A stretch of 64,000 nucleotides of DNA from Polyangiales bacterium (GTDB lineage Bacteria; Myxococcota_A; Polyangia; Polyangiales; Polyangiaceae). The stretch lies in assembly GCA_038231275.1 (NCBI GenBank), contig JBBRLQ010000024.1, forward strand, positions 59,244-123,243, given 5' to 3'. Under the pieces are notes generated by a model that saw only the letters and a program-made list of their open reading frames with translations, searched no databases and was not told where the DNA came from. Positions 3,957 through 57,941 of this stretch are shown here, in pieces. Position 1 is the first letter of the stretch; every line of letters starts with the position of its first letter. The position numbers were made by a program, and so were the translations under genes.

Positions 3957-5342
3957 TCACTGGATGAGCAGACTTCCCATCGCGCCGTCGTCGGAGAAGA
4001 CGCGTACTCCCATCGGGCCGCTCTTCGCCGAGCGCGTGACCGTCGCGTCGCGCTCGGCGCGGACGGCGCGCGCTCCGGGTGCCCGCTCGGAGTGCCACGT
4101 GGTCGCGAACGGGCCTTTGCCATCCCACGCCGCCGCGACCGACCACGCGAGCGGCTCGGTCGGCTCGACCAGCGTGATGCGGGCGCTTCGCTTGTCGCGC
4201 TTGTCGCGATGGTCGCGATCGACCTCGACGCGCGGCGGCGGCGCGACGGGCCAGGCAGCAGAGCGCGTGTGCTCGACGGAGACACCCGCGCCCGCGCGAA
4301 GGAGACGCGCGCGCGCGGTCGCAATCGCCGCAGGATTCACGTCGCCGCAGATCGCGCGACGCCCGGTGGCAAAGGCCGCCTCGGCAGTCGTCCCGCTACC
4401 CGAAAACAAATCCACGACGAGCCCGCCCTCCGGGCTCGCGCAGCGCAGGATTCTATCCAGCAGCGCGCGCGGCTTCTGCGTCGGGTAGCCGGTGCGCTCG
4501 CCGGGCTTCGCGTGACGGAGCGGTGGCACGTCGGTCCACAAGGCGTCGACCCGTCGCTCGCGGCAGAGGACACCCTCGTCGTTCTTCACGAGGAAGTATT
4601 TGATGTAGACCTTGCCGCTCGCCGTACGGTGGACGCGTCCGATCTCGTCGAGCTTGGCGATGGACGCGTCGGTGTAGTCGCCGCGCGGCGCGCTCGTGAA
4701 GGGGCGCCCTTGGTCGTCTCGCCGAATGGCGCCGGGCTCGATCGGCTCGAGGCGCGTCGGCGGCGTGAGCGTCGCGTCGGGGCCGCCGTAGACGACGATC
4801 GTGTCGAGTGTGCGACCGAACTGCGCGCTGGTGGCCTGCCGCCCGAGGTTCGGCGCGCGGCGCCACACGATCTCGTTGATGAACGCGTCGCGGCCCATGA
4901 TCTCGTCGAGGAGCGCCCGCACGAGGTACGACGCGCGCCAGTCGACGTGGATCCAGATCGAGCCCGTCTTCGCGAGGAGGCGCACGCCCGCTTCGATGCG
5001 CGGCGCGAGCATGTCGAGGTAGTCAGCGATCTCGCTCCAGCTGTCGCTGTAGGCCTTGGTCCGGCGCACGCGCCCGTCGGCGGGTCCGTCGAGACGCGCC
5101 TCGAGCACGTAGTCCGCTTGCGAGGCGTAGGGAGGATCGATGTAGACGAGATCGACTTTACCGCCGAGGCCGCGCGCGTGCACGGCGCCAGCGAGCTCGA
5201 GGGCGTCGCCCAGCACCAGCGTCTGCGCTCCGTCTCCTACCTGCTCGAGCGCCGAGGTCCGCTCCCCGGCGAAGAGCGGGAGGCCCGGTTCCCAGACGCG
5301 CCGTGGCCAGGTCAGTCGCAGCTCTCGTTTGACCGGCTTCAC
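3957..5342 (-). CDS. Orphan N6-adenine/N4-cytosine DNA methyltransferase (beta-class motif order)
   Basis: VDLVYIDPPY (motif IV) precedes YPTQKP and VVDLFSGSGTT (motif I); start uncertain, GTG at 5342 chosen. Confidence 0.85.
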   Translation of the reverse strand: MKPVKRELRLTWPRRVWEPGLPLFAGERTSALEQVGDGAQTLVLGDALELAGAVHARGLGGKVDLVYIDPPYASQADYVLEARLDGPADGRVRRTKAYSDSWSEIADYLDMLAPRIEAGVRLLAKTGSIWIHVDWRASYLVRALLDEIMGRDAFINEIVWRRAPNLGRQATSAQFGRTLDTIVVYGGPDATLTPPTRLEPIEPGAIRRDDQGRPFTSAPRGDYTDASIAKLDEIGRVHRTASGKVYIKYFLVKNDEGVLCRERRVDALWTDVPPLRHAKPGERTGYPTQKPRALLDRILRCASPEGGLVVDLFSGSGTTAEAAFATGRRAICGDVNPAAIATARARLLRAGAGVSVEHTRSAAWPVAPPPRVEVDRDHRDKRDKRSARITLVEPTEPLAWSVAAAWDGKGPFATTWHSERAPGARAVRAERDATVTRSAKSGPMGVRVFSDDGAMGSLLIQ

Positions 5343-5343
5343 G

Positions 5344-5379
5344 CATTCACCACATTCACCACATTCACCACATTCACCA
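5344..5379. repeat. (CATTCACCA)x4 perfect 9-bp tandem repeat
   Basis: Read directly from the sequence; abuts the methyltransferase start. Confidence 0.95.
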
Positions 5380-5535
5380 GGAGCGAAGAGCTTAGGCCAA
5401 ATCACGCAGGGGTGCGGCGTGCGCAAAATGTCACACAGTCGTATGTCGTAATGGACCCGCCTTTGCGGTAGGCTCCTAAAGTTTCCCTGCCCTGAGGATG
5501 AAATCCTGAGCGCCCCGCGATCCACCGCCCCCCGC

Positions 5536-7599
5536 TTGATCGACATCCTGCGGGCGCTGCCCACGGGGGAGCTAGACTCGCTCGTCTCGCGGCTGGGCAT
5601 CCGCATCGACGCGGCGAAGCGCCTCGATCCGCCGTCGCAGGTGGCGCGTGTGCTCGTCGGCCTGCCCGACCTGCGCGATCCCTCGCGCCTGCCACAAGCG
5701 AGCGTCGAGCTTCTCCATCGCGTCGCGGAGGCGCGAGGCTCGCTCATCGTGCCGTCGATTCCCACGGCCCTCGAGCCGCTGTCGGCGCGTGGCCTCATGT
5801 TCGCGCGCGGCGAGCGCGGCGCGGTGGAGCTCATTCTGCCGGCGGCGTTCTTGGTGCAGCTGCGATCGTGGGAGGGCGAGGATCCGCGCGGGATTCGCGC
5901 GCTGCTCGCGGGCGCGGCGTTCGAGACGGCGAGCGCCATCGCGGCGCACTACCTGGGTCGCCCTGCGACGCCACCCATCGCGTTGTCGCTGGAGCTCGCG
6001 TGGGAGGTGCTCGGCGATCCGGTGCGCCTCAAGGAAGAAGTCCACAAGCTCTCGGTGACCGAGCGACGCGTCCTCGAGAGCGTCGAGCGCGAGGGCGGAG
6101 AGGTCGACACCGAAGAGCTCCTCGAGCTTGAGAAGGAGCCGCTGCGCCTCCGGACCGCCACCGGCGCGACCCCTTCGCGGCGCGGCGTCGGATTCTCGCT
6201 CGAGCGACGCGGCGTGCTGGTGCCCGTGCACCCGAACCGCCACATCGTCCCGACCGAGGTCGCGCACATCATCAACGCCGACGGCCTCGCCGAGCGAGAG
6301 GCGCGACGCGAGCAGGTGAAGAGCTTCGTCGCGGAGGGCGATCATGCGCCGAGGCGCGCGCGCTTCACGCAAGATCCTTCGCCGATCGCGATGGGCCTCG
6401 CCCTCGTCGCGCGCGAGCCCGGCAACGAGGTGCGCGCCGGCATCGGCACCCCCAAGTCGCTCGTCCAGAAGCTCTCGACGCGTTTCGGACGCGATCCCGA
6501 ACATGTGTCTCTCATCGTGGCCCTGTCGCGCGCGGTCGGCCTCTGGGACGTGTCCGCGACTTCGCAGGCGGCGCCGCCGGGGTCGCTCGCCGTGCACGAG
6601 CTCACGCGACTCCTCTTCGGCGCGTGGCGTCGCGGCGGCGCGTGGGACGAGGCGCGCCCCGAGCCCGAGATGCTTCGCGTCGCGGTCGACGCGCGCGATC
6701 CGAGCCCCGTCGGCGTCGTTCGCGAGATGGTGCTCGAGTCGCTGAAGGATCTCGGTGAAGGACGCTGGGTGCCGTGGGCCTCGCTCTCCGGGTACCTGCG
6801 GACGGACCATCGCGTGCCCGGCCTGACGCGCCTCCTGCGACGGTGGGCGGAGCGCGTTGGCGTCGAGGTGACGGAGCCCATGGAGGTCGCGCGACGCATC
6901 GCGCAGGCGAGCCTGCCTGCGCTCGGCATCGTCGACCTCGGCGAGGACGACGCGGAAGAAGGCGGGACGAGCCCTCAGATCGCGCTTCGCCTCACGCCGC
7001 GCGGGCGTTCGCTCCTCTCCGAAAGGCCGCCGACGCTCGACGGGACGAAATCGAAGTTCCTCGACACGCACGTCCTGCGCATCGGGCCGAGCACGCGCGT
7101 CCATGCGCTCCTCGCGATCGCTCCGTTCATCGAGGTCGGCCGCGCGACCGACACGCTCGATCTCATCGTCGCGCCGCAGACGCTCGCGCGCGCGCTGTCC
7201 GCCGGTTTCGAGGCCGACGCGCTTCGCCAACGCATCGAAGCCGTCGCGCCGCTGCCCGAGACGCTCTCGCGCACGCTGGCGCAGGCGAGCGTGGTCGTCG
7301 GCCGCGGGACGTTCAGCGCAGGCGCAGGGTTCCTCTGGGTCGAGGACCACAACGTCCGCGAGCTGCTTCGCACGCGACGCCCGACCGCGGAGCTCTTCGT
7401 CGATCCGTCGCCGCCCGCGGGGCTCATCGTGCAGGCCGGCGTCGATCTGGATCGCCTCAGCCGCCGATGCCGCACCATCGGTGTGGAAGTGCTCGTGGAC
7501 GGTCAGGTGATCCGCGCCAAGACGCAGCCGCCGCCGCCCGTCCGCGCGACGCCGCTCGGCACGCGCGCCACGAAGGACGACAAGAAAGACGACCGCTGA
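5536..7599 (+). CDS. Helicase-associated (XPB/Ssl2 N-terminal, Helicase_C_3-like) domain protein without ATPase motifs
   Basis: Winged-helix-like segments, LRLTPRGR, and C-terminal 'TLARALSAGFEADALRQRIEAVAPLPETLSRTL' typical of the family; no Walker A or DExH motif. Confidence 0.6.
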   Translation: MIDILRALPTGELDSLVSRLGIRIDAAKRLDPPSQVARVLVGLPDLRDPSRLPQASVELLHRVAEARGSLIVPSIPTALEPLSARGLMFARGERGAVELILPAAFLVQLRSWEGEDPRGIRALLAGAAFETASAIAAHYLGRPATPPIALSLELAWEVLGDPVRLKEEVHKLSVTERRVLESVEREGGEVDTEELLELEKEPLRLRTATGATPSRRGVGFSLERRGVLVPVHPNRHIVPTEVAHIINADGLAEREARREQVKSFVAEGDHAPRRARFTQDPSPIAMGLALVAREPGNEVRAGIGTPKSLVQKLSTRFGRDPEHVSLIVALSRAVGLWDVSATSQAAPPGSLAVHELTRLLFGAWRRGGAWDEARPEPEMLRVAVDARDPSPVGVVREMVLESLKDLGEGRWVPWASLSGYLRTDHRVPGLTRLLRRWAERVGVEVTEPMEVARRIAQASLPALGIVDLGEDDAEEGGTSPQIALRLTPRGRSLLSERPPTLDGTKSKFLDTHVLRIGPSTRVHALLAIAPFIEVGRATDTLDLIVAPQTLARALSAGFEADALRQRIEAVAPLPETLSRTLAQASVVVGRGTFSAGAGFLWVEDHNVRELLRTRRPTAELFVDPSPPAGLIVQAGVDLDRLSRRCRTIGVEVLVDGQVIRAKTQPPPPVRATPLGTRATKDDKKDDR

Positions 7600-25653: not shown

Positions 25654-27750
25654 ATGCCGCGTTGGGTTCGTCTTGCGTCGAGCTCGGTCGCCGTCGCGAC
25701 CCTGATCGTCGCGTGCGGATCGCGGACCGGCCTCGATTTGCCGCAGGACGACTGCGCAGAGGGCTTCATCGACTGTCAGCCCGCGCCCGACGCGCACCAC
25801 GACGCACCGCGCGACAACACCGTGCCCGACGTGCTCGTCGATCGCGACGGACCACGCGACGTCTCGCGTGAAGGCGACGGGCCGCTCTTCGAAGGCGGGC
25901 CGCTCGACGTCGTGACGGACTGCGCGCAGCCCGCCTACTGCGATCCGGCGGATCCTGGCTACGTCTACAAATGCGGCGTTCGCATCTTCCAGTGCAGCTC
26001 GCTCGAGCAGTGCGAGCAGGTCGGCGGCTTCGATGCCGGCGACGCGAGCGACGCGGGCACCGCGCAGTGCATCAACCCGTGCCTCGACACGCTCGGGCAG
26101 GACACGTCGAACGGGTGTGAGTTCTTCGCCGGCGTCATCGACACCGAGGCCTCGACGGCGGGCGCGTGCTACGCAGTCTTCATCGTCAACCAGTGGAAGA
26201 CGGGCGAGCCGGCCCGCATCCAAGTCGATCGCGGCGGGACGATCCTTCCGATCGACTCGTTCACGCGCATCCCGGTCGGCAAAGGCACGTCGCTCGCGTA
26301 CGCGGCGTACGACTCGCAAGTGGGGCTCGCGAAGGATCAGATCGCGATCATGTTCCTCTCCGCGAACCCGGCGCTCGCGGGAACGGGCGGCAGCAACCCC
26401 AACGTGCTGGCGCAGTGCCCCGCCGGCGTTACCCCCGCGGTGATCCCCGACGCTGCGCTCCACGGCACCGGCTTCGGGACGGCGTTCCACATCAAGACGA
26501 ACGTGCCGGTCGTCGGCTACCAGATGATCCCGTACGGCGGCGGGCGCGCGCGCGTGACGAGCGCGACGTTGCTCCTGCCCACGAACGTGTGGGACAAATC
26601 GTTCGTCGCCGCCAACGCGCACCCGCAGCCGAACTTCGACGTCGTGCCGCCGGCCGCCGAGGACTCGCCGACGATGATGATCCTCGCGAGCGACAACGAC
26701 ACCCACGTGACCATCAACCCGGTGACGCCCATCACCGGAGGAGGCGGAGTCTCACCCGCGCCGGCCGGCGCACCGGTCACCTACACGATCGGCCGCGGCG
26801 AGTACCTCCAGCTCACGCAGCCGATCGAGCTGACCGGAAGCCCAATCGCCGCCGACAAGCCGATCGCGGTGATTGGCGGATCCACGATCATGCAGGTCCC
26901 CCTCGGCCGGCAGCGCGCCGACACCGCCCACCAGATGCTGCCGCCCGTCAGCGCGCTCGGCAGCGAGTACGCGGCGGTGCGCTACCGGCAGCGCGCGACG
27001 CACGCCGACGAGACCGTTCCCTGGCGCATCGTCGGCGTGGTCGACGGCACTCAGCTCACGTGGGAGCCGTCGATTCCACCCGGCGCGCCGACGACGATCA
27101 ACGCGCGCCAGTTCGTCGAGTTCAACTCGCAAGGCCAGTTCGTCGTCCGCAGCCAGAACGCCGCGCATCCGTTCTACATGGCCGGCTACATGACGGGCGG
27201 AGATACCCCGCCGTACCTGCGGGCCGAGACCGACGGCGGCGTCACCGAGAATGAGACCCCGAACGACGGCGAAGGCGACGCGGAGTTCGTGAACCTCGTG
27301 CCCCCCGCGCAGTTCCTCCCGCGCTACACGTTCTTCACCGATCCGACCTACCCAGAGACGAACCTCGTCGTCACGCGCGTCAAAGATCCGGTGCTCGGCT
27401 TCCCCGAGGTCTCCCTCGACTGCGCCGGCACCCTCGGCGGATGGACGAACCTCGGCGCCGCCGGCCTCTACCAGTACACGCGCGTCGATCTCTCGACCGG
27501 CGATTTCCAGGGCGTCGGAGGCTGCGACAACGGCGTGCACACGATGGTCGGCAGCTTCCCGGGCGTCGACGGCTCCGCGAACGTCCCGCGCTTCGGCGTG
27601 ACGATCTGGGGATGGGGCAACGGCATCACCTACGCGCCATGCTGCGGTAACAACGAGGACCAGAACCCCAAGTACACGCGCTGGGTCAGCTACGCGTACC
27701 CTGCGGGAGCGAACTTCTCGCCGCTGAACAGCGTCGTCATCACGCCTTAG
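25654..27750 (+). CDS. IgGFc-binding-protein N-terminal domain lipoprotein, paralog 1
   Basis: Lipobox VAC; SNGCEFF, AFHIKTNVPVVGYQ, SATLLLPTNVW, ADKPIAVIGG, QMLPPVSALGSEY, WVSYAYPAG. Confidence 0.85.
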   Translation: MPRWVRLASSSVAVATLIVACGSRTGLDLPQDDCAEGFIDCQPAPDAHHDAPRDNTVPDVLVDRDGPRDVSREGDGPLFEGGPLDVVTDCAQPAYCDPADPGYVYKCGVRIFQCSSLEQCEQVGGFDAGDASDAGTAQCINPCLDTLGQDTSNGCEFFAGVIDTEASTAGACYAVFIVNQWKTGEPARIQVDRGGTILPIDSFTRIPVGKGTSLAYAAYDSQVGLAKDQIAIMFLSANPALAGTGGSNPNVLAQCPAGVTPAVIPDAALHGTGFGTAFHIKTNVPVVGYQMIPYGGGRARVTSATLLLPTNVWDKSFVAANAHPQPNFDVVPPAAEDSPTMMILASDNDTHVTINPVTPITGGGGVSPAPAGAPVTYTIGRGEYLQLTQPIELTGSPIAADKPIAVIGGSTIMQVPLGRQRADTAHQMLPPVSALGSEYAAVRYRQRATHADETVPWRIVGVVDGTQLTWEPSIPPGAPTTINARQFVEFNSQGQFVVRSQNAAHPFYMAGYMTGGDTPPYLRAETDGGVTENETPNDGEGDAEFVNLVPPAQFLPRYTFFTDPTYPETNLVVTRVKDPVLGFPEVSLDCAGTLGGWTNLGAAGLYQYTRVDLSTGDFQGVGGCDNGVHTMVGSFPGVDGSANVPRFGVTIWGWGNGITYAPCCGNNEDQNPKYTRWVSYAYPAGANFSPLNSVVITP

Positions 27751-27774
27751 TCGGAGTCGGAGTCGGAGTCGGAG
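27749..27774. repeat. (AGTCGG)x4 hexamer array
   Basis: Begins inside the TAG stop codon of the upstream gene. Confidence 0.95.
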
Positions 27775-30421: not shown

Positions 30422-30454
30422 GTCGGAGTCGGAGTCGGAGTCGGAGTCGGAGTC
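30422..30454. repeat. (GTCGGA)x5.5 hexamer array
   Basis: Directly abuts the mlaE stop codon. Confidence 0.95.
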
Positions 30455-36727: not shown

Positions 36728-38590
36728 TTAACCAACGGCGAGGGTAGGCTCCTCGACCCTTTTTTGCGCGAACTGGAGGCGGTGGAGGCGCGCGTACACG
36801 CCGTCCTTCGCGAGGAGCGTCTCGTGGGTCCCCGTCTCGACGACCCGCCCTTTGTGGAAGACCACGATACGATCGGCGGCACGGATGGTCGAGAGGCGGT
36901 GCGCGATCACGATCGCGGTCCTCCCTTCCATCACGGCCTCGAGCGCGAGCTGAAGGCGCGACTCGGTGTCGGAGTCGATGCTCGCCGTGGCCTCGTCGAG
37001 GACGAGGATCGGCGCGTCGCGGTAAACGGCGCGCGCGAACGCGAGGAGCTGCCGCTCGCCGGCGCTGAAATTCGCGCCGCGCTCGTCGACCGGCGCATCG
37101 AGGCCCTCCGGACGTCGCAAGAACATTTCCAGCGCCCCTACCCGCTCCAGCGCGCGCTCCGCCTTCCTACGATCGGGCTTGGGATCGCTCATCGCGACGT
37201 TCGAGAGCACCGTGCCGGTGAAGAGGAAGACGTCCTGCGGCACCACCGAGAAATTCTCGCGCAGCCCGTGACGGTCGTAGCTGCGGACGTCCTTGCCGAG
37301 GACCCGCACGAGACCCCGATTGGCCTCGTACAATCTCAGCGCAAGGGCCGTGATCGTCGTCTTGCCCGCCCCCGTCGCGCCCACGAGGGCCACCTTCTCG
37401 CCGCGCTTCACGGTGAGCGACACGTCGCGCAGCACCGGAACTCCGGGCTTGTACTCGAAGTCCACGTCCACGAGCGCGAGCGCTTCGTCGTTCGGTCCTT
37501 CGGGCCCCGCCTCGTCCGCCGCGACGGGCTCCGGGTCGATCTCTTTCTCGTCGAGCAGCTGGAAGATGCGCTCGGCGCCGCTCATCGCCGACTGCAGGAT
37601 CGTGTAGCGCTGCGCGAGGAGGCTGATCGGCTCGAAGAACTGCTTGATGTACTGCGTGAACGTGACGACGAGCGCGAAGCTGAGCGCGTGGTTTCCCACC
37701 TTCTGGAAGCCGGCCCACCAGAGGATGCAGGCGATGCACACGGTGCCGACCATCTCGATCGCGGCGTCGAGGATCGCCTCGTAGAAAATGGAACGTTTGT
37801 TGGCGTCGCGGTACGAATCGTTGATCTCGTCGAACTCCTTGGCCATCGCCGCCTCGCGCGCGTAGGCCTGCACGACGGCGATGCCGCTCACCTGCTCGTT
37901 CAAGAACGCGTTGAGGCGCGCGGTCTTGGTGCGGATGTCGCGGAAGGCCTCGCGCGAGCGGCGGCGCACGAAATTCACGATGAGGCCGACGACCGGCATC
38001 GCCGCGAAGGCGATGAGGGAGAGCTGCCAGTCGAGGACGAGCATCATGATGACGATCCCGACGAGCGCGACGAGATCGCCGATCGCGTTGAGGACACCCG
38101 ACGCGAAGAGCTCGCCGACGGCGTCGACGTCGTTGGTGGCGCGCGTCACCAGGCGCCCGACCGGCGTGCGGTCGTAGTAGCGGAGCTCGAGCTTCTGGAG
38201 GAACGCGAACACCGTCGCGCGAAGATCGGCCATCGCGCGCGCGCCGCCGATCTGCATCGTGTACATCTGGATGAAGCCGAACACCTGGGCGACGATCACC
38301 AGCGCGGCCAGCGCGACGCCATCGAAGAGGAGCGCGCTGGAGTCCTTTGCCGCGGCCTTCGCGACGACGTCTCCCATGAGGACCGGGCGCACGAGGCTGG
38401 TCCCCGCGAGGAGGATGAGCATCGACAAGGAGAGGACGACGTACTTGCCGTGAGGACGCACGAACGGCAAGAGGCGACGCACCAGCGACGCGTCGTACGT
38501 CTTGGTGAACGCGCCCTCCTCGTGGAACGCGCGCAGCTTCTGCTCCGCCCGCGTCTCCTCCTTCTTCTTCGGCTTCGTGGCGGCGGTCAT
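36728..38590 (-). CDS. ABC exporter, fused permease/ATPase (heterodimer subunit B, MdlB-like)
   Basis: TM domain, GATGAGKT, FSAGERQ, LDEAT, IAHRLST. Confidence 0.92.
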   Translation of the reverse strand: MTAATKPKKKEETRAEQKLRAFHEEGAFTKTYDASLVRRLLPFVRPHGKYVVLSLSMLILLAGTSLVRPVLMGDVVAKAAAKDSSALLFDGVALAALVIVAQVFGFIQMYTMQIGGARAMADLRATVFAFLQKLELRYYDRTPVGRLVTRATNDVDAVGELFASGVLNAIGDLVALVGIVIMMLVLDWQLSLIAFAAMPVVGLIVNFVRRRSREAFRDIRTKTARLNAFLNEQVSGIAVVQAYAREAAMAKEFDEINDSYRDANKRSIFYEAILDAAIEMVGTVCIACILWWAGFQKVGNHALSFALVVTFTQYIKQFFEPISLLAQRYTILQSAMSGAERIFQLLDEKEIDPEPVAADEAGPEGPNDEALALVDVDFEYKPGVPVLRDVSLTVKRGEKVALVGATGAGKTTITALALRLYEANRGLVRVLGKDVRSYDRHGLRENFSVVPQDVFLFTGTVLSNVAMSDPKPDRRKAERALERVGALEMFLRRPEGLDAPVDERGANFSAGERQLLAFARAVYRDAPILVLDEATASIDSDTESRLQLALEAVMEGRTAIVIAHRLSTIRAADRIVVFHKGRVVETGTHETLLAKDGVYARLHRLQFAQKRVEEPTLAVG

Positions 38591-44411: not shown

Positions 44412-44470
44412 TCGGAGTCGGAGTCGGAGTCGGAGTCGGAGTCGGAGTCGGAGTCGGAGTCGGAGTCGGA
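44412..44470. repeat. (TCGGAG)x~10 perfect hexamer array
   Basis: Starts at the base after the rsmI TAA. Confidence 0.97.
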
Positions 44471-45707: not shown

Positions 45708-45734
45708 TCCGACGCCGACGCCGACGCCGACGCC
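45708..45734. repeat. (T/G)CCGAC x4.5 hexamer array
   Basis: 3 nt after the TAG of the upstream gene. Confidence 0.9.
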
Positions 45735-45765: not shown

Positions 45766-46902
45766 ATGAGAAGATCTGCCTTGCTGGTTCCCTTCGTCGC
45801 GGGCGCGATGCTCGCTGCGTCCGATGCGTCGGCCACTGGTCATGTCGCCGGGGGAGCGAATCCGCGGCTCTTTCACGCGCACGTGCCGGACGTTGCGCCG
45901 CCGCCCCCGATGCCGACCAAGGATCCGAAGGGTAACCCGCTGCCGAACGTCGGGCCGCCGCCGACGGGGACGTCGAAGATGCCGCTCGTCATCTTGCTGC
46001 ACGGCCTCGCCGTCGACGCGACGATGCAGGACATGTTCTTTCAGCTGCGGACGATCGCCGATCAGCGCCGCTTCGCGTTCGCGTACCTCGACGGCACGCG
46101 CAACGGACTGGGGCTCCAGTTCTGGAACGCCACCGACGGGTGTTGCCAGTTTCCCGCGAACCCAAACTTCGCGACGGCGTTCATGCACGGGATTCACGGG
46201 CTCCTCGGCGCGCTCACGGCGTCGGTCGGGGGGCCGCCGGTCGACGACGTCGGTTACATCGACTCGGTCATCGACGTGATGACCAAGACGTACCCCATCG
46301 ACGAAAAGCGCATCTTCGTCGTCGCCCACTCGAACGGCGGGTTCATGGCGCACCGGTTCGCGTGCGAGAACACGCGCGTCGCCGCGATCGCGACACTCTC
46401 GGGCGCGCAGTGGATGGACGCGTCGAGGTGCCCCGGGACCCACAAGGTATCGGTCCTGCACATCCACGACACGGCGGACGAGATCATTCCCTACGCGGGG
46501 GGCACGCCGCTGCTGTCGCCGCTCTTCTCGCCGGCGATGAGCATCGTGTACCCGAACATCTCGGTGCCGTCGGCGAAGGAGACCGTCGCGCGGTGGGCGA
46601 GGCGCGACGAGTGCAAGGGCGGCCTCACGATGGTCGGCGGTACGAAGGTCGATCTCGAGCAGCGCCTTCCGGGCCCCGACACGCTGATGGAGAAGTACGA
46701 CTGCCCGGCTCCCTACGGCGTCGAGCTGTGGACGATCGAGGGTGGGCCACCGAGGTCGCTGGAGACGCTCGACGGCACGAACTCGGCGCACATCCCGCGG
46801 TTTTACTACCACGGCATGCCGGGTTTCCATGAGCCGCCGGGGAACCAGCCGGCGTTCCCCGACCGCATCTACGACTGGCTCATCGCCCACCCGAAGCCGT
46901 GA
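45766..46902 (+). CDS. Secreted alpha/beta hydrolase (LpqC / PHB-depolymerase-like esterase)
   Basis: Signal peptide, PLVILLHG, WNATDGCC, VDDVGYI, nucleophile elbow AHSNGG, HIHDTAD. Confidence 0.85.
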   Translation: MRRSALLVPFVAGAMLAASDASATGHVAGGANPRLFHAHVPDVAPPPPMPTKDPKGNPLPNVGPPPTGTSKMPLVILLHGLAVDATMQDMFFQLRTIADQRRFAFAYLDGTRNGLGLQFWNATDGCCQFPANPNFATAFMHGIHGLLGALTASVGGPPVDDVGYIDSVIDVMTKTYPIDEKRIFVVAHSNGGFMAHRFACENTRVAAIATLSGAQWMDASRCPGTHKVSVLHIHDTADEIIPYAGGTPLLSPLFSPAMSIVYPNISVPSAKETVARWARRDECKGGLTMVGGTKVDLEQRLPGPDTLMEKYDCPAPYGVELWTIEGGPPRSLETLDGTNSAHIPRFYYHGMPGFHEPPGNQPAFPDRIYDWLIAHPKP

Positions 46903-46910
46903 GGACGACC

Positions 46911-48413
46911 ATGAACACGCCGAGACTTCTCGTCCTCGCCACGCCGACGCTGCTCCTCGCCGCGCTCGCCGCCACGCATTCGGGGCGCGCCGACGCGCTC
47001 ATCAACGGGCGGCCCACGCGCGCCGACGGCTCCGGGTTCGTGCACTTGCACGGCGCGATGTCGACGTGCAGCGGGACGCTCATCGCGCCGGACACGATTC
47101 TCACCAGCAAGGGGTGCTTCACCGCCGCCGAGGTCATCCACGCCGATCTCGCGGGGTGGTTCATGGGCGCGGATGACTCGGACAAAAACGCGCTTCGTGA
47201 GATCCATCCGCACCCGACGCTCGACGCAGCGCTCGTGCGGCTTACGCACCCGATCGTGAGCACGCTCTTCGATCTCTACCCCTTCGAGGCATCGCAGCTC
47301 GTCGGCGCGCGAATGACCTGCAATGGCTACGGCACCATGGGTGGTCCGCAGATCACCTACGGCGGACAGCTGTCGAGCGGCGAGTTCAACGTGCCGTCCG
47401 TCACGCCGACCACGCTCAACGTCGTGAGCCGCGTCCTCTTTGCCGGATACGATCAAGGCGGCGGCTGCGTCGTCGCGCACCAGGGGCGCTCTTTTCTGGC
47501 CGGCGTCATGAGCGTCGCCAACGCCAACCCCACGAGCGTGACCGCGCTGCGCCGCTTCGTCTCGTCGTTCGCGACGTGGCACGAGCTCGAGGCCGGCGAC
47601 ACCGACGTCTGCATCCGTGCGCCGCGATCGGCACCCGCCAACGCGACGACGCCGCTCGAGCTCGCCGCGTGCGACGGCAACCCCAGCGAGGGCTGGGAGG
47701 TGAAGACCGTCGACAACGGCAGCGTGGAGATCCGCGCCAAGGCGAGCAACCTCTGCCTCACCGCGGTCGGCGACGCGCTCGTTCAGGCAATGTGCGGAGG
47801 TGAGATCACCGAGGCGCACCCGGGCAAGCTCCCCAAGCAGCGCAAGCCCGAGCAGATGTGGGCGGTGTCGACCGCCACCGACGGCTTCGTCGAGCTGATG
47901 AGCATCGCGCGATCGGGTCGGTGCATCGAGGCGGTCGGCGTGGGCAAGGGCAATAACGGCAAGCTGACCCTCTCGCCGTGCAATCTCGCGACGCGCAGCC
48001 AGCACCTGCGCATCAACGTGACGCTGCTCGACGAGCGCGATCATCGCCTCGGGGGCGTGCCAGGATGCGCGTCGGCGAAGGAGCTGCGAAGCGCCGGCCC
48101 GATCGGCACCGACGCGTGCAGCGGCAAGGACAACCAGCTCTGGCGCCTCGAGCGCGCGGAACGCCCGTATTTTCTCGTACATTCGCGAGAGGGGCGGTAC
48201 GGGCGCTGCATCTCGTCGAGCGGGAGCGCGCTGCAAGAAGCGGGTTGCATCGGGACGACCGACGCGCAGAAGTGGCGCCTCGAGTACCAGCCGGACGGAA
48301 ACTACTCGCTGCGCGGGAAGCAGACCGGGCACTGCGCCCTCGCGACAGGGGGCGCGCTGGAGCAGATGGCGTGCGACTCGGCGCAGCCGAAGCAGCACTG
48401 GGCGATGGAGTAA
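46911..48413 (+). CDS. Secreted trypsin-like (catalytically degenerate) domain plus two ricin-B lectin domains
   Basis: CSGTLIAP, DAALVRL; QxW-type repeats (QMW, QLW, QKW, QHW) with C-L/I-x patterns. Confidence 0.75.
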   Translation: MNTPRLLVLATPTLLLAALAATHSGRADALINGRPTRADGSGFVHLHGAMSTCSGTLIAPDTILTSKGCFTAAEVIHADLAGWFMGADDSDKNALREIHPHPTLDAALVRLTHPIVSTLFDLYPFEASQLVGARMTCNGYGTMGGPQITYGGQLSSGEFNVPSVTPTTLNVVSRVLFAGYDQGGGCVVAHQGRSFLAGVMSVANANPTSVTALRRFVSSFATWHELEAGDTDVCIRAPRSAPANATTPLELAACDGNPSEGWEVKTVDNGSVEIRAKASNLCLTAVGDALVQAMCGGEITEAHPGKLPKQRKPEQMWAVSTATDGFVELMSIARSGRCIEAVGVGKGNNGKLTLSPCNLATRSQHLRINVTLLDERDHRLGGVPGCASAKELRSAGPIGTDACSGKDNQLWRLERAERPYFLVHSREGRYGRCISSSGSALQEAGCIGTTDAQKWRLEYQPDGNYSLRGKQTGHCALATGGALEQMACDSAQPKQHWAME

Positions 48414-48423
48414 CGACGGTTGG

Positions 48424-48477
48424 GCCGACGCCGACGCCGACGCCGACTCCGACGCCGACTCCGACTCCGACTCCGAC
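48424..48477. repeat. (G/T)CCGAC x9 hexamer array
   Basis: 10 nt after the TAA of the upstream gene. Confidence 0.95.
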
Positions 48478-48551
48478 TTGCGCGTCGGGTCTCGGCGCCT
48501 CATGCTCTCTCCATGAACTTCACCGAGCGCATCTGACGCCGGCCCTCTCTC

Positions 48552-49805
48552 TTGCCGCTCACGCTGGTCACGCTCGCCGACGAGCTGTGGAGCGGCGTGG
48601 CGGTGTGCGGCGCGCCGTCGGTGGAGGACGAGCTCGGGCTGTCGCACCGGGCGTACGTGACGTTCGTGTTCGCCGTGCCGCTGGTCGTCGCGGCCGTCCT
48701 CGAGGGCGGCATCGCGTTGCTCTCGGATTTGCGCGGGCGTGCGCGTGTTCTGGTGCTCGGACAGGCGGCGCTCGCGGCGTCGCTGCTGCTGACGGCGTGC
48801 GCTCGAGGGCCATGGGGCCTCACGATCGGCCTCGCGCTCGCAGGGACGTCCAGCGGCGTCGCGTGCGGTGCAGGGCAGGCGCTCCTGCTCCTTTGCTTCG
48901 GCGACGGTGATGACGCGCGCGATCGCGCGATGGTGCGCTGGACGCTCTACGGCGCAATCGGTGACGTGCTGGCACCGCTCGTCACGGCGGGCGCGGTCGC
49001 GATGGGGTTCTCGTACCGCGCGGCGATGGCGGCGGTCGCGGCGGGAGTTGCCGTCCAGTGCGCGGCGAGCGCGCGACGGCTCCTCCGCACGGAGCCTCCG
49101 CGCGGGGACGCGGACGCGCCGGACTGCGACGCGCCGGCGCCTCTGCGTAGCGCGCTCGCGGCCGCCATCCGTCGTCCCGCGCTGTGGGCGTGGCTCTTCG
49201 CGGCGGCGTCGTGCACGCTCCTCGACGAAGTGATCGTCGCGCTGGCCGCGCTGCGCCTCGTGCGCGATCAAGGTGCCACCGGCGCGCTCGCGGCGGCGTC
49301 GGCCGTGGCGTTCTCGGGGGGCGCGGTCGTCGGTGCGGCGCTCACCGATCGTGCCGTCGCGCGGTGGTCGTCGAGGCGCGTGCTCGTCGCGAGCGCCGTG
49401 GCGTGTGCTGCGGCGCTGGGCGTCTTCGTCGCGTCGACGGCGCCGGTCGCTTCGTGCGCCGCCTTGCTGCTCGTGGGCATCACGTGCGCGCCGCATCACG
49501 CGCTAGCGCTGTCGCGCGCGTACGGTGAGCTTCCCGGCAAGCCGGGAACGGTGCAGGCGATTGGGCAGATTTTCGTCGTGATGGATGTCGCGATTCCCCT
49601 TGCGATCGGAGTCGTGGCGGATCGCTTTGGGCTGGGCGTCGCGGTCGCGTGCCTGCTCGTGCAGCCCGCGGTGATCCTCGCGTGCGCGGTGCCGGGGGGC
49701 GCGGACGCCGACGCCGATTCCGATTCCGACTCCGACGCCGATTCCGATTCCGACGCCGACTCCGACGCCGACTCCGACGCCGACTCCGACTCCGACTCCG
49801 GGTGA
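48552..49805 (+). CDS. MFS transporter with repeat-derived Asp/Ser/Ala tail
   Basis: About 12 TM helices, [11 protein letters not shown] and ADRFG MFS motifs; start uncertain. Confidence 0.8.
49701..49800. repeat. (G/T)CCGA(C/T) x~16 hexamer array inside the MFS 3' end
   Basis: Read directly; left flank of the four-helix-bundle cassette. Confidence 0.95.
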
Positions 49806-49828
49806 CGGGCCTCTCTCGGGTCTGGGCG

Positions 49829-49920
49829 ATTTTGCCGGCGTGCTCGGCGGTGTCAAGGCCGAGCCGGCTGCGCCGGTGCCGCCTGCGGCGGCAGCCTTGA
49901 CACCGCCTGCGCTCGCCGGC
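49829..49920. promoter_or_regulatory. Y-shaped fold-back element, copy 1 (putative ssDNA promoter)
   Basis: 14-bp perfect stem 49846-49859/49894-49907, two triloop hairpins, outer stem 49834-49840/49914-49920; minus-strand TTGACA-N16-CAAAAT. Structure is seen, function is inferred. Confidence 0.7.
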
Positions 49921-49963
49921 TTCGGGGCGGCGCCCCGAGAGAAGGGGGCGCGAGGAGGTTTCG

Positions 49964-50278
49964 ATGTTGAGAGTTTATGAAGAGGTGCTCGAGGTGGTGG
50001 GGATGCTCAGGGAGGTGCTCGGTGAGATCGAGAAGAGGGATGTCGATCTGGGTCGGCAGCTGCGGCGCGCCGCGGCCAGTGTGGCGCTGAACATTGCCGA
50101 GGCGAATGGGAGTCGCGGGAGAAATCGCGGGTTGCGGTTCAGCACGGCGCTGGGCTCGATGCGCGAGACACTCGCATGTCTTCAGGTCGGCGCCGCGTTC
50201 GGGTACGTGGAGATGGACGGTGAGCTGCCGCAGAGGATCGACCGCATCTGCGCGGCGCTCTACTCGCTGGCGAGATGA
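49964..50278 (+). CDS. Four-helix-bundle protein (TIGR02436 / 23S-IVP / Avd-like fold), copy 1
   Basis: [21 protein letters not shown]....[12 protein letters not shown] signature; GAGGAGG Shine-Dalgarno. Confidence 0.9.
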
Positions 50279-50281
50279 GGT

Positions 50282-50322
50282 TCGCCGAGGGCGCCGCGGA
50301 AAACGGCGCCCTCGGCGAGTTT
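50282..50322. terminator. 15-bp perfect hairpin between the convergent genes, probable intrinsic terminator
   Basis: TCGCCGAGGGCGCCG-CGGAAAA-CGGCGCCCTCGGCGA followed by GTTTT. Confidence 0.8.
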
Positions 50323-50640
50323 TCACCGGGACAGGCGGTAGAGAGAGCCGCAGATACCGTCCATTTTGCGTGCAGTCTGCATGCACACCGCCTCCAGGTG
50401 ACCCATCGCAACCGCGACGTCCAAGCAGGCTTGCGTCTCCCGCATCGACCCCAGCGCCGTGCTGAACCGCACCGCGCCATTCCTCCCCCGACTCCCCTGC
50501 GCCTCCGCGACATTCAACGCGACGCTACTCACCGCCCGCCGCATCTGCCGCGCCAAGTCACTATCCCGCTTCTCGATCACCCCCATCGCGTCCTTCAACT
50601 CCCGAATCACCTCCAACACCTCTTCATAAACTCTGAGCAT
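50323..50640 (-). CDS. Four-helix-bundle protein (TIGR02436 / 23S-IVP / Avd-like fold), copy 2
   Basis: [11 protein letters not shown] start identical to copy 1; DLARQMRRAVSSVALNVAEA...[19 protein letters not shown] Shine-Dalgarno. Confidence 0.9.
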   Translation of the reverse strand: MLRVYEEVLEVIRELKDAMGVIEKRDSDLARQMRRAVSSVALNVAEAQGSRGRNGAVRFSTALGSMRETQACLDVAVAMGHLEAVCMQTARKMDGICGSLYRLSR

Positions 50641-50676
50641 CCCAGCCTCCTTCTCCCCTCTCGGGGGCCCCCCTCC

Positions 50677-50766
50677 GCTCGCGAGCGCAGGCGGGGTCAA
50701 GGCTGCCCCGCAGGGGCACCGGCGAAGCCGGCTCGGCCTTGACGCCGCCGAGCACGCGAGCAAGCT
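50677..50766. promoter_or_regulatory. Y-shaped fold-back element, copy 2 (putative ssDNA promoter)
   Basis: Stem 50690-50703/50736-50749 (one mismatch), hairpins TGCCCC-GCA-GGGGCA and CCGGC-GAA-GCCGG, outer stem 50677-50683/50755-50761; plus-strand TTGACG-N16-CAAGCT. Confidence 0.7.
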
Positions 50767-50788
50767 AGCCCCCTCGAGAGAGGAGCAC

Positions 50789-50918
<130 letters not shown>

Positions 50919-50975
50919 TTCCCCCCCGCTCGTCCCCTCGTGCGCGCCGCCCTGGGAAATGCGAGCCTCCCCCTC

Positions 50976-52301
50976 GTGACCGCACGATCCGCCTCGGTTC
51001 TCACCGTCTTCGCGCTCCTCGCGGCGTGCAGCAAAACAGAGCCTCCCGCGCCGGGCCTCCTCGAGGCCGCCCCTACCGTCGCCGCGTCCACCTCTCCTGT
51101 CGACGCAGCGCCGCCCGGAATCGGCGAAGGTGGCGGCACGCTCGAAGCGGAGGGCGCGACGCTGACGATCCCCGAAGGCGCCCTCAGGGGCGCGCGCGTC
51201 TTCACGATCGCGTCCGTGAAAGGTGACGCGCTGGTCGGTTGGCCACGCGGCACCGAGCTCGGCTTCGCCTTCACGCCGGCGGGCGAGCGCTTTCGTGTGC
51301 CGGTGACGATCGCGCTACCGCACCCCGCCAGCCCCGACGGCGGCGGGGGCGGCGGCGAGATCGTCTGCGAGAACCGGCCTGGCGATCGCACCCAGACCCA
51401 GTTCGACGGCACCTTCGACGGCAAGCCGCTGCCCGTCCACGTCAACGTCCTGCCGCGCCGCTGCGCCGTCTATACCGCCGAGCACGCCAAGGCGCTCCAG
51501 GCCGCGCGCGCGAAGGAAGCGGCGATGGTCGACAAGGGGAACACGTCGTACCACTGGGAGATCAAGGGCCAGGTTTGCGATCCACACGATCTGGTACGCC
51601 CCAACGCTGGGCGCGATCTCCGCGAGCCGCCCGGCCTCGGCGGATGCCCGGCCGGGATGGCGCGGATCCCCGGCAGGCCGAGCGCGTGCGTCGACCGCTG
51701 GGAGCCGCACCTCGTCGAGGTGCTGGACGACGGCACGGAGCACACGTGGACGCCGTACTTCAACCCTGCGGGCCTCAAGGTCCGGGCGAAGAGCTCGCCC
51801 GGCGCAGTGCCGCAGGCGTACATCTCACAGGTGCAAGCCGGCGCGGCGTGCGCGGCGTCGGGCAAGCGCCTCTGCAAAGACGACGAGTGGGTGCTCGCGT
51901 GCAAGGGCAGCAAACACACCCAATTTCCCTACGGAAACGAGGAAAAGCGGGGAACATGCAACGATCAACGGGACCCTCACCCGGCGATGCAGTACCTCGA
52001 ATCGCACGATCTCTCAGTGTTCACGAAGCTCGAGCACCCGTGCATCAACCAGGTGCCCGACTCGCTACTGCCAGGCGGCGCGAAGGCCGCGTGCGCGACG
52101 CCCGAGGGCGTCTACGACATCGTCGGCAACCTGCACGAGTGGACGGCCGACCCGAGCGGACACTTCCGCGGCGGGTACTACGTCGACACGTGGCTCAACG
52201 GTCACGGGTGCGACTACGTCACGACCGCGCACGAGGCGCGGTACTGGGACTACTCCACCGGCTTCCGCTGCTGCGCAGACGCGCCCGCGCGCGACCAGTA
52301 G
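50976..52301 (+). CDS. Lipoprotein with C-terminal FGE-sulfatase/SUMF1 domain
   Basis: Lipobox AAC; CPAGMA, GKRLC...EW..AC, FPYG, GVYDIVGNLHEW, FRGG, GFRCC. Confidence 0.85.
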   Translation: MTARSASVLTVFALLAACSKTEPPAPGLLEAAPTVAASTSPVDAAPPGIGEGGGTLEAEGATLTIPEGALRGARVFTIASVKGDALVGWPRGTELGFAFTPAGERFRVPVTIALPHPASPDGGGGGGEIVCENRPGDRTQTQFDGTFDGKPLPVHVNVLPRRCAVYTAEHAKALQAARAKEAAMVDKGNTSYHWEIKGQVCDPHDLVRPNAGRDLREPPGLGGCPAGMARIPGRPSACVDRWEPHLVEVLDDGTEHTWTPYFNPAGLKVRAKSSPGAVPQAYISQVQAGAACAASGKRLCKDDEWVLACKGSKHTQFPYGNEEKRGTCNDQRDPHPAMQYLESHDLSVFTKLEHPCINQVPDSLLPGGAKAACATPEGVYDIVGNLHEWTADPSGHFRGGYYVDTWLNGHGCDYVTTAHEARYWDYSTGFRCCADAPARDQ

Positions 52302-56292: not shown

Positions 56293-56373
56293 ACAGACTC
56301 CGACGCCGACTCCGACGCCGACGCCGACTCCGACGCCGACTCCGACTCCGACGCCGACTCCGACGCCGACGCC
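56293..56373. repeat. (T/G)CCGAC x~13 hexamer array
   Basis: Directly abuts the stop codon of the 56373-57941 gene. Confidence 0.95.
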
Positions 56374-57941
56374 TACGGCTGACAGGTCCCGTTCACGCAG
56401 TACTGGAACTTTGGGCACGCCTTGCCGCAGCCGCCGCAGTTCGCCGGATCGCTGAGCACGTCCACGCACGCGCCGTTGCACTGGTTGGTCTCCGGCCCGC
56501 AGACGCATGCGCCGGCGCGACAGATTCCGCCAGGCATGCACGTCGTGCCGCATGCGCCGCAGTTGGTCGGGTCGAGCGAGGTGTCGGCGCAGAGGCCGTT
56601 GCAAACGGTTTGCCCAGTGGCGCACGCGCACGCGCCGCCGGCGCAGAGCTGGTTGCCGGGGCACGACTTGCCGCAGGCGCCGCAGTTGCCGGCGTCGTTC
56701 AGGGGATCGACGCAAATGCCTCCGCACGCGACGAAGCCCGCTGCACACACGCACGCGCCGCGCCGGCACCCTTGGCCGGCCCCGCAGGCGACGCCGCATG
56801 CGCCGCAGTTCTGCGGATCGCCGGCGAGGTTCACGCACGCGCCGTTGCATGTCGTCTCTCGGCGGCCGCAGGTCGCGGCGCAGCGCCCACGCGCGCACAC
56901 TTGGTCCGCGGCGCACGCGTTGCCGCAGGCGCCGCAGTTGTCGTGGTCGTTCGCGAGCTCGTGGCATGCGCCGTTGCAGAACGTCTCGCCGTCGGGGCAC
57001 TTGCACGCGCCGGAGACGCAGAGCTGACCTATGCCGCAGGGACGTCCGCACGCGCCGCAATTTGCCGGATCGTTTCCCAGGTTCGCGCAGCCGTTCTTGC
57101 ACGCGGCGAGGCTACCCGCGCACGCGCAGGCGCCGGAGACGCACGGCTCGCCGGCGCCGCACGCGTTGCCGCACGCGCCGCAATTCAGCGGATCGCTGTC
57201 GACGTGAACGCACACGCCGCCGCAGCGTGTGCTCCCGGCTGCGCACGCGCACTTGCCTCCGCCACATACTTCGGTGGGCAAGCAGGCTACGCCGCACGCG
57301 CCGCAGTTCAGCGGATCCGCAGTGGTGTCCACGCAGCTCTGGCCGCACGCGGTGAACGGCGGCGTCGTGCAGCTGCCCACGCACGCGCCCGACTGGCAGA
57401 ACGGCGCTGCGGAGGTGCATGTGACGCCGCACGCGCCGCAGTTGTTGGGATCGCTGGCGATGCCGGTGCAGACGCCGCCGCACGCCTGCTCGCTGGGCGG
57501 ACACGCGCATTTGCCCGCGACGCACGCCTGTCCCTTCGCGCACGCGTTGCCGCACGCACCGCAGTTCGCGGCGTCGGATTGCGTCCCGACGCACGCGGCG
57601 CCGCATTTGGTGAGACCGGTCGCGCACGCGGCCTGGCACGTGCCGTTCGAGCAGACGAGACCCGCGTCGCACGCGTGGCCGCACGTGCCGCAGTTCGTGG
57701 CGTCGGACTCGGCGTCGACGCATGCGCCCTTGCAGCTGGTTTGGCCGTTGGGACACGTGGCTGCCGGCGGCACGCCGCATTCGCCGTTGATGCAAGAATA
57801 GCCGCTGGTGCCGGTCTGGCAGTCGGCGTCGGTCGTACACGTCGCCGTCCCGTTCTTGCCGCCGCAGCTCACGACGAGGAGAGCGGCGACGACCACGGCG
57901 AACACGATCACGTGCGAGAGGAGTCGGGTGGGCGTGTGCAT
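56373..57941 (-). CDS. MXAN_6577/Stig1-like Cys-rich repeat lipoprotein
   Basis: Lipobox VSC; more than ten 'DPxNCGACGxxC' repeats. Confidence 0.88.
   Translation of the reverse strand: MHTPTRLLSHVIVFAVVVAALLVVSCGGKNGTATCTTDADCQTGTSGYSCINGECGVPPAATCPNGQTSCKGACVDAESDATNCGTCGHACDAGLVCSNGTCQAACATGLTKCGAACVGTQSDAANCGACGNACAKGQACVAGKCACPPSEQACGGVCTGIASDPNNCGACGVTCTSAAPFCQSGACVGSCTTPPFTACGQSCVDTTADPLNCGACGVACLPTEVCGGGKCACAAGSTRCGGVCVHVDSDPLNCGACGNACGAGEPCVSGACACAGSLAACKNGCANLGNDPANCGACGRPCGIGQLCVSGACKCPDGETFCNGACHELANDHDNCGACGNACAADQVCARGRCAATCGRRETTCNGACVNLAGDPQNCGACGVACGAGQGCRRGACVCAAGFVACGGICVDPLNDAGNCGACGKSCPGNQLCAGGACACATGQTVCNGLCADTSLDPTNCGACGTTCMPGGICRAGACVCGPETNQCNGACVDVLSDPANCGGCGKACPKFQYCVNGTCQP

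Follow-up and report, generated by a model that had tools for sequence, protein, structure and literature searches.

The locus described here lies in a stretch of 64,000 nucleotides from a Polyangiales bacterium (contig JBBRLQ010000024.1, positions 59,244 to 123,243), hereafter the window, and all positions are counted from its first letter. Two convergent genes for small four-helix-bundle proteins are found in it, each preceded by a fold-back of about 85 nt that is termed the Y element. Over 49704-50918 the order is hexamer array, Y1, hairpin and Shine-Dalgarno (SD) sequence, gene 1 (rightward), central hairpin, gene 2 (leftward), SD and hairpin, Y2 and hexamer array. A sequence-only reading of the window had proposed this anatomy of arrays, Y elements, SD sequences, convergent genes and central hairpin. 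Every part was found at the position given for it, and the additional hairpin between Y and SD goes beyond that description.

The left array was delimited with Tandem Repeats Finder (TRF) as 16 copies of (GACKCC)n at 49704..49800 and overlaps the 3' end of a predicted MFS open reading frame (ORF). A pyrimidine box, CCTCTCTCGG (49810..49819, + strand), follows about 15-24 nt 5' of Y1 and is the window form of the family motif CTCGCTCGG. Y1 spans 87 nt (49834..49920, + strand) and is supported by RNA and DNA folds, by the covariance model (CM, 106 bits) and by covariation. Next come the leader hairpin P5 found by folding (GCGCCCC...GGGGCGC, 49930..49951, + strand), the SD sequence GAGGAGG (49952..49958, + strand) 5 nt 5' of the ATG, and gene 1 (49964..50278, + strand, 104 aa). 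Between the genes, a perfect 15-bp hairpin (50282..50318) is followed by TTTT on the + strand and is likely the terminator of gene 1. It is not family-wide: elsewhere paired genes abut or overlap. Gene 2 (50323..50640, - strand, 105 aa) has a leader with the SD sequence GGAGG (50641..50676, - strand), recognised from the sequence and the family logo, and then Y2 (85 nt, 50677..50761, - strand; RNA and DNA folds, CM 98 bits). The right array (TRF, 50787..50918) holds 22 copies of (CCGACN)n, sharing both unit and strand with the left array.

Both proteins belong to PF05635 (48.8 and 48.1 bits for genes 1 and 2, curated cut-off 33.8) and to TIGR02436 (52 and 48.1, curated cut-off 24). They are identical at 65 of 105 positions, or 62%, close to the roughly 60% counted by hand in the sequence-only reading. 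The AlphaFold2 model of the gene 1 protein, made from a 109-sequence alignment, shows four helices at a pLDDT of 96.2. Foldseek matched 2gsc (E 5.7e-4) and 2rld (TM 0.86), with 2gsc also retrieved by a PDB profile search at 1.5e-9. Chains of Avd from diversity-generating retroelements (DGRs) were more distant matches (TM 0.72-0.75, E above 0.2). By its modelled fold the PF05635 protein is Avd-like and probably binds nucleic acid. To our knowledge, PF05635 proteins are among the commonest small bacterial proteins without a known role outside DGRs, and the Y element gives them a defined regulatory context. The ORFs in intervening sequences (IVSs) of 23S rRNA genes, IVS copies being bounded by inverted repeats, and Avd share the protein family and fold with the window genes. 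The latter, however, lie in intergenic microsatellite arrays: neither a reverse transcriptase (as beside DGR Avd) nor an rRNA was found in the window, hence the genes are not inside a 23S rRNA gene.

Neither protein had a match in PADLOC or PHROGS, and tblastn against 72,556 plasmids returned no match. A protein search yielded 417 relatives, two of which carry N-terminal extensions that seem to be read through Y-like sequence. In the protein tree each window gene groups with its own orthologues in two related loci (L001, L002), so that the duplication is old. The pair is not a fresh inverted duplication, as had been argued before. In other genomes the paired genes stem from distant clades or from separate duplications.

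Fold and covariation of the Y element

Y1 and Y2 fold as three-way junctions under both RNA and DNA parameters and on either strand. With DNA parameters, the z-scores of Y1 and Y2 are -5.49 and -2.15 on the sense strand and -6.40 and -4.64 on the antisense strand, while the RNA z-score of the Y2 sense strand is only -0.84. In Y1 the outer helix P1 (49834-40/49914-20) is separated from P2 (49846-59/49894-907) by an internal loop of TGCTC (49841-45) and TGCGCT (49908-13). Helices P3 (49864-68/49872-76) and P4 (49878-83/49887-92) lie within P2.

The mean column identity between the two copies is 95% over 87 Y columns and 85% over the whole aligned unit, against 62% for the proteins; the upstream element is therefore better conserved than the genes. 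Most of the differences between Y1 and Y2 are compensated stem changes. P1 differs in two pairs, both of them compensated (GCCGGCG/CGCCGGC versus GCTCGCG/CGCGAGC). P4 is short of one whole pair between the copies, and one P2 position is uncompensated (T-A versus C.C). In 46 distinct copies, drawn from the window and from the related loci, pairing holds in 94.9% of 1402 cells, and both sides have changed in 28 of the 32 Y pairs. None of 500 shuffles reached any of the five covariation measures, and slid registers were paired at 31-45%. The Y structure is under selection, and the earlier claim that the upstream structures are conserved with compensatory changes was confirmed in the window pair and in the family.

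Three segments are invariant: TGCTC in the 5' side of the internal loop, its partner TSCGCK, and GTCAAGG/CCTTGAC in P2, where one position is usually a pyrimidine-pyrimidine mismatch. When RNAalifold was applied to whole upstream regions, only P1 and P2 were recovered; the variable P3 and P4 and the leader could not be aligned by MAFFT. An extended stem outside P1 was considered and rejected, as Watson-Crick pairing was 28% at register 0 and 24-29% at shifted registers. Position by position, the flanks pair at 5-47% over positions 1-11, like shifted registers, and only positions 12-14 reach about 50%.

Rfam gave no match at the gathering score over the whole window and only chance-level hits over 49600-51000. 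No description of the Y element or of the hexamer arrays was found in the literature on PF05635, TIGR02436 and IVP or on tandem repeats of Sorangium, Polyangia and Myxococcota. The Y element is thus new to Rfam and to the literature searched.

Two variants were noted. In a subfamily without the TGCTC loop (L023:9864-9953, L029:9862-9954, L074:393-484, L076:4093-4190 and L018:1863-1966), P1 and P2 form one continuous helix and the -35 element reads TGGAC. A recurrent P4 variant, GCTCGC-TGC-GCTCGC with two pyrimidine mismatches, occurs in units of L032, L033, L005, L017, L047 and L080. Its pentamer GCTCG is also present in the upstream box and in the internal loop, a recurrence that hints at a repeated protein-binding word.

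A cassette family in Polyangia and Y homologues in insertion sequences

Related loci were collected by a genome scan. While an earlier scan with a two-protein alignment had given 236 pattern matches and no confirmed locus, the 109-protein alignment gave 287 confirmed loci. Of these, 80 were used, all from metagenome-assembled genomes (MAGs) of Myxococcota and mostly from Polyangia. The Y counts below refer to these 80 loci plus the window (1.24 Mb), and specificity was measured only within 10 kb of four-helix-bundle genes. The CM was built from the two window copies and rebuilt from 51 hits. The rebuilt model found 103 distinct Y sites, 100 of which have a four-helix-bundle gene downstream on the same strand, at 28-73 nt (median 45) from Y to ATG. 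Conversely, of 106 such genes for which 200 nt or more of upstream sequence were available, 95 have a Y. The window locus belongs to a dispersed, multi-copy family of cassettes in Polyangia that has at least 100 copies; the best-represented MAG contributed eight loci and another one seven.

The basic unit of the family consists of a three-way-junction Y of about 85 nt, a short leader hairpin with the SD sequence and a PF05635 gene. Such units are single or paired and usually abut 6-nt arrays. Among 86 modules there are 39 single Y>gene units, 22 convergent pairs and 5 divergent pairs, the rest being partial or tandem. The inverted pair, which had been taken for the functional unit, is accordingly a common arrangement, but one among several and not essential. 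The further idea that an inverted pair ensures that one copy fires whichever strand is exposed is no general design, given the singles, divergent pairs and tandems. The genes next to the window cassette (MFS and FGE) were found at no other locus. The gene families that recur in the flanks (Ser/Thr kinase, histidine kinase, ABC transporter and sigma-54 activator) are paralogues of a generic kind, and no mobility gene recurs there.

A tandem array with a period of 5-8 is present no more than 120 nt upstream in 60 of 94 Y units, compared to 1.6% of random positions, and the repeat unit varies between genomes. The arrays had been drawn as a mirrored part of each unit. This could not be upheld, as they are direct repeats on the same strand in the window (direct mismatch 1, inverted mismatch 3) and in direct orientation around the convergent pairs of the family. 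Arrays flank 18 of the 19 internal convergent pairs on both sides; 17 of the 18 are direct, none is inverted and one is tied. The convergent cassette thus appears to have entered an array by insertion, or to have been transferred as a copy from one array to another by recombination. Within a genome, the similarity of the copies extends from array to array only, over about 1.05 kb. Among 30 single units, 17 have an array beside Y and only 1 has one beside the gene, an asymmetry that fits poorly with simple insertion into an array. As a side observation, the MAG contigs of L049, L051, L037, L003, L005 and L017 end 234-271 nt from the gene start, inside or beside the array or Y, as expected if repeats break short-read assemblies.

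The Y element is not exclusive to these genes. A blastn search of plasmids with the Y region gave matches on Bradyrhizobium plasmids, and homologues were located with the CM in L081:6002-6085, L082:3002-3083, L084:2499-2584 and L085:2497-2587. They score 55-64 bits, are 82-91 nt long, keep the invariant segments and have covarying stems. Their hosts are alphaproteobacterial plasmids of Bradyrhizobium (two related elements, of which one copy is 5'-truncated), Sinorhizobium and Azospirillum (the ISAzs32 family). In each, Y is found downstream of an IS110-family transposase gene, within its 3' non-coding region and in the orientation of the transposase. About 57 conserved nt come next, with ...CGAACAAARGRAT(G) at their end, where the similarity between contexts stops. 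Between distant elements only Y and these 57 nt are similar at the DNA level. No four-helix-bundle gene follows the Y of the insertion sequences (ISs) examined. While these plasmid homologues adjoin a DEDD transposase, none is present at the window locus, and no two-loop guide architecture was seen.

Y is thus a strongly covarying element of about 85 nt, absent from Rfam and common to two phyla, where it belongs to a gene cassette and to the non-coding region of RNA-guided IS110-family elements. For IS1111-type elements, it is described that the 3' non-coding region yields a transposase-bound seekRNA of 82-96 nt, that the elements form circles and that a junction promoter is thought to drive transcription (PMC11187229 and PMC13604230). 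In such an excised circle the Y element would sit upstream of the transposase gene. No account of what Y does in these ISs was found in PMC11187229, PMC13604230 or PMC12288879.

A proposed promoter on the template strand and its rivals

The sequence-only reading proposed that each unit is driven by a promoter that works on single-stranded DNA. On the strand antisense to gene 1, a promoter scan found the -35-like TTGACA (49856-49851, - strand), 16 nt and the -10-like CAAAAT (49829..49834, - strand), in which the C belongs to the last base pair of P1 and the A is the first unpaired base. At Y2 the -10 position reads CAAGCT (50761..50766, + strand, antisense to gene 2), and A and T are both retained. 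In the position logo of 95 distinct units the antisense pattern is TTGAnn, a fixed 16 nt and nANNNT, with the A in 88 units and the T in 89, and the hexamer again begins with the last P1 pair. A -35 matching at four of six positions is combined with A2 and T6 in 72 of the 95 units. The sense strand has a -35 and no -10, the matching positions holding A in 0 of 98 and T in 1 of 98. In an ordinary duplex the antisense hexamers point away from the gene, and they point toward it only after fold-back of that strand. A fold-back of the template strand that would present -35 and -10 to the gene, as in the Frpo/ssi promoters, was accordingly found in the window and in these 72 units.

The nature of the folded molecule can be approached from its pairing and loops. 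The Y pairing is Watson-Crick only: among the 1402 cells there are 14 G.U and 17 A.C, with no preference for G.U. The 93 distinct Y elements have 209 hairpin loops. Triloops make up 148 of these, and in 114 of the 209 the sense strand reads C-TNC-G, which corresponds to C-GNA-G on the template strand. The latter is the C:G-closed GNA triloop seen in the promoters of phage N4; the reverse case, C-GNA-G on the sense strand, occurs about 4 times. The leader behaves unlike Y: in 88 of 95 units it folds better on the sense than on the antisense strand. Its main hairpin begins +7 to +15 after Y in 62 of the 95 and includes the SD sequence in 26. The G.U content of de novo folds was also tried as a signal for RNA or DNA and proved uninformative, as it tracks base composition. 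Because of the lack of wobble preference, the GNA loops of the template strand, the antisense -35/-10 geometry and a strand bias that is seen in the leader and not in Y, the Y pairing looks like that of DNA on the template strand and not like that of RNA. The single-stranded promoter idea has thereby gained sequence support from pairing, loops and antisense hexamers at 16 nt, whereas the dependence on a single strand is something that we still infer.

We tentatively favour the view that Y is a structure-gated sigma-70-type promoter of the Frpo/N4 type, which would act as DNA on the template strand of its gene. Folding would be triggered when the template strand is single-stranded or is extruded by negative supercoiling. 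P2 would then offer TTGAnn in duplex form as the -35 element, and the rest of P2, the internal loop and P1 would make up the 16-nt spacer. The last P1 pair would correspond to position -12. The unpaired ANNNT (-11 to -7), opposite a non-complementary G-rich template flank, would represent a ready-made fork or bubble. From there, RNA polymerase would proceed along the 5' arm into the gene, with transcription beginning at the base of the leader hairpin, about 12 nt beyond P1. The predicted starts are about 49932 for gene 1 and about 50665 for gene 2, and such a start matches the position at which the leader hairpin usually begins. Moreover, unrelated IS110-family elements from another phylum carry Y with its invariant segments, as would be expected if it is recognised by a universal component of the host such as RNA polymerase. 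Further support comes from the literature on related hairpins. In PMC11541004, Frpo fold-back promoters are described as folded single strands that present -35 and -10 to the host RNA polymerase. According to PMC3201870, C:G-closed triloops of the d(GNA) type have an unusual stability in DNA. In the N4 template-strand promoter hairpins treated in PMC4496689, the C:G closing pair and the loop G and A are needed for supercoil-driven extrusion and for resistance to SSB.

Several observations weigh against a structure-gated promoter. The -10 is weak (consensus cACGAT), and its A/T pair is lost in two of the four IS-borne Y copies examined. A pyrimidine triloop hairpin is described in PMC5449611 as being as stable as its GNA complement, which weakens the argument from the strand bias of the loops. 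The DNA folding energies of the two strands are near equal, the antisense strand being more stable in 57 of 93 Y elements with a mean difference of 0.7 kcal/mol. The locus lies in an ordinary chromosome, and its window has no conjugation genes as a source of single-strandedness. A functional seekRNA is made from the 3' non-coding region of IS1111-type elements (as described in PMC11187229), and this raises the chance that Y is an RNA. Finally, the invariant TGCTC/TSCGCK loops, the three-way junction and the CTCGCTCGG box are left unexplained by a promoter mimic.

Fold-back DNA and promoter mimics are known from other systems as well. Streptomyces telomeres contain a promoter, the origins of filamentous phages and of rolling-circle replication mimic promoters, and the terminal hairpins of parvoviruses and adeno-associated virus (AAV) resemble the Y fold-back. 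As in those telomeres and viral hairpins, the cassette has an inverted Y at both ends. The telomeric 'rabbit ears' are, in the description of PMC5449611, a Y-shaped fold of single-stranded DNA with two small GNA-loop hairpins on a longer stem. In contrast to Y, which is internal, beside a start codon and without a terminal protein or Rep gene, these structures are terminal and prime replication. With Frpo/ssi, Y would share the feature that the folded strand is the template of the downstream gene (described for Frpo in PMC11541004), a likeness of geometry as read here from the sequence. It differs in lacking the context of a plasmid, oriT and relaxase and is not in a conjugative leading region. 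It is an 85-nt three-way junction instead of a long imperfect hairpin, its -10 is at an open fork outside the stem, and its associations are with a single gene family and with IS110-family elements. The N4 early promoters have C:G-closed G-N-A triloops on the template strand in common with Y (PMC4496689). However, they are hairpins of 5-7 bp centred at -11 and used by the virion polymerase, while Y has 85 nt, four stems and sigma-70-type hexamers. True homologues of Y are present in the 3' region of IS1111/IS110 elements such as ISAzs32, and these have the same invariant segments.

The same elements provide the basis for a different view, in which the folded molecule is RNA. Y could be the 5' domain of the four-helix-bundle mRNA, that is, a cis-regulatory leader that is perhaps bound by the protein, or a processed non-coding RNA related to those of the IS1111/IS110 3' regions. 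This is possible, although somewhat doubtful. The layout is that usual for a leader: the distance from Y to the start codon is always 28-73 nt, and after Y comes a hairpin, which contains the SD sequence in 26 of 95 units. Avd, the structural relative at TM of about 0.72-0.75, works within a ribonucleoprotein. The 82-91 nt of the IS-borne homologues, which lie in the IS110 3' non-coding region, also compare well with the 82-96 nt of the seekRNAs in the tested IS1111-type elements (given in PMC11187229 and PMC13604230). The two seekRNA segments that match the target overlap there, and it can be deduced from PMC11187229 that they could therefore mimic a stem with strictly Watson-Crick covariation. 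Against an RNA, G.U is no commoner here than A.C, and C-UNC-G triloops are not typical stable RNA loops. Upstream of Y no promoter is conserved. The only conserved -10-like hexamer abuts P1, and a transcript from there would therefore miss the covarying 5' arm of P1. Rfam gave no match, and the unpaired segments are invariant across differing surroundings, unlike the target-specific guide segments of seekRNA and bridge RNA. A simple check of P1 as a guide matching its flanks showed no enrichment: the P1 7-mers match the 290 nt upstream in 18 of 92 cases, compared to 13.3 +/- 2.9 in permuted controls. Should Y be RNA after all, it would represent a new conserved domain of the IS110/IS1111 non-coding region.

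If the molecule is duplex DNA instead, the hexamers TTGAnn-16-nANNNT would complete a sigma-70-like promoter that fires outward, and the stems would be protein-binding inverted repeats of a palindromic operator, kept symmetric by DNA-level processes. The 5 divergent pairs are in agreement with this, as the distance between their Y elements is about 80 nt and each outward promoter is directed at the partner unit, whose gene it would then drive. The 39 singles and 22 convergent pairs, by contrast, have no partner to drive, and the genes would be left without a recognisable promoter. Operator symmetry also does not predict four nested or adjacent stems of differing sequence that covary over about 100 copies, and an ordinary duplex promoter is consequently very improbable.

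The Y element might also be mainly a signal for recombination or mobility, with the cassette as a non-autonomous hitchhiker of IS110-family or other recombinases that inserts into arrays, and with Y as the DNA structure by which the recombination machinery would recognise it. This would be compatible with either a promoter or an RNA. There are many diverged copies per genome in unrelated contexts, the homology within a genome is confined to the array-to-array segment, and the arrays on both sides of convergent pairs are direct in 17 of 18 cases, as insertion into an array predicts. Y and the 57 nt after it are also the sole blastn-similar part of otherwise divergent IS110-family elements. Such elements are described as inserting into repeats, and a hitchhiking module of ISPpu9 also exists alone (PMC12288879). 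Against this, no transposase is seen among the annotated window ORFs or in the gene families that recur in the flanks. Only 1 of 81 sources has an IS110-like gene, and it is 2.5 kb away from the cassette. The array asymmetry of the single units does not fit, and the orientation of Y differs, as it points toward the near element end in the IS and inward to the gene in the cassette. Of the features that would mark a miniature inverted-repeat transposable element (MITE), inverted Y ends and dispersed copies were observed; single units have no second end, and the arrays mask target duplications. On balance, mobility is improbable as the main role of Y. The sole IS110-like transposase match in the window and the 80 loci (tblastn) is L022:12573-13466 (-), at 28% identity and E 2e-14, with no Y beside it.

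A broader form of the promoter view is more speculative and must be considered rather unlikely. Y would then be a new, widely portable class of promoter gated by DNA conformation, silent toward its gene in the relaxed duplex and active once the template strand has been exposed or supercoiling has extruded it. Polyangia cassettes and IS110-family elements alike would make use of it. In an IS, where Y faces the element end, transcription from it would, after excision, cross the circle junction and enter the transposase gene. The cassettes would act as chromosomal reporters or effectors of local DNA unwinding that spread between arrays, and the hexamer arrays would be their landing sites. If the fold-back promoter itself is real, structure-gated transcription would extend to ordinary chromosomes, beyond plasmid entry and phage N4, and it might explain the transposase expression of some IS110-type elements.

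Surroundings of the locus

Pfam annotation of the 47 window ORFs shows housekeeping and signalling genes. No relaxase or mating-pair gene was found among these ORFs, and no phage gene in the window annotation. Together with the Rfam scan, this upholds the statement of the sequence-only reading that the window has no transposase, reverse transcriptase, relaxase or rRNA.

A few other features of the window were noted. An ORF for an N6/N4 DNA methylase (3960-5939) adjoins one with an HD-associated domain (2099-3418), and the two may be a restriction or defence pair. The ORF at 37293-37607 (104 aa, GC3 0.90, no Pfam match) has the length of gene 1 without any similarity detectable by tblastn. Two genes 5' of the cassette, a predicted secreted protein (46899-48410) contains Ricin-B lectin repeats and a weak match to a CDtoxinA domain.

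Six further arrays of the (NCCGAC)n type lie in short intergenic gaps at 27749-27774, 30422-30454, 44412-44470, 45709-45734, 48425-48478 and 56296-56377. Hexamer microsatellites in this genome thus seem to serve as intergenic spacers even without a cassette. The arrays are tightly linked to Y and also fill many short intergenic gaps, which makes them a second unexplained feature of Polyangia genomes. The MFS ORF (48552-49805) reads through the left array of the cassette, giving a D/S/A repeat tail with a weak match to SD-repeat adhesin models; its true stop may be earlier, or the array may be translated.

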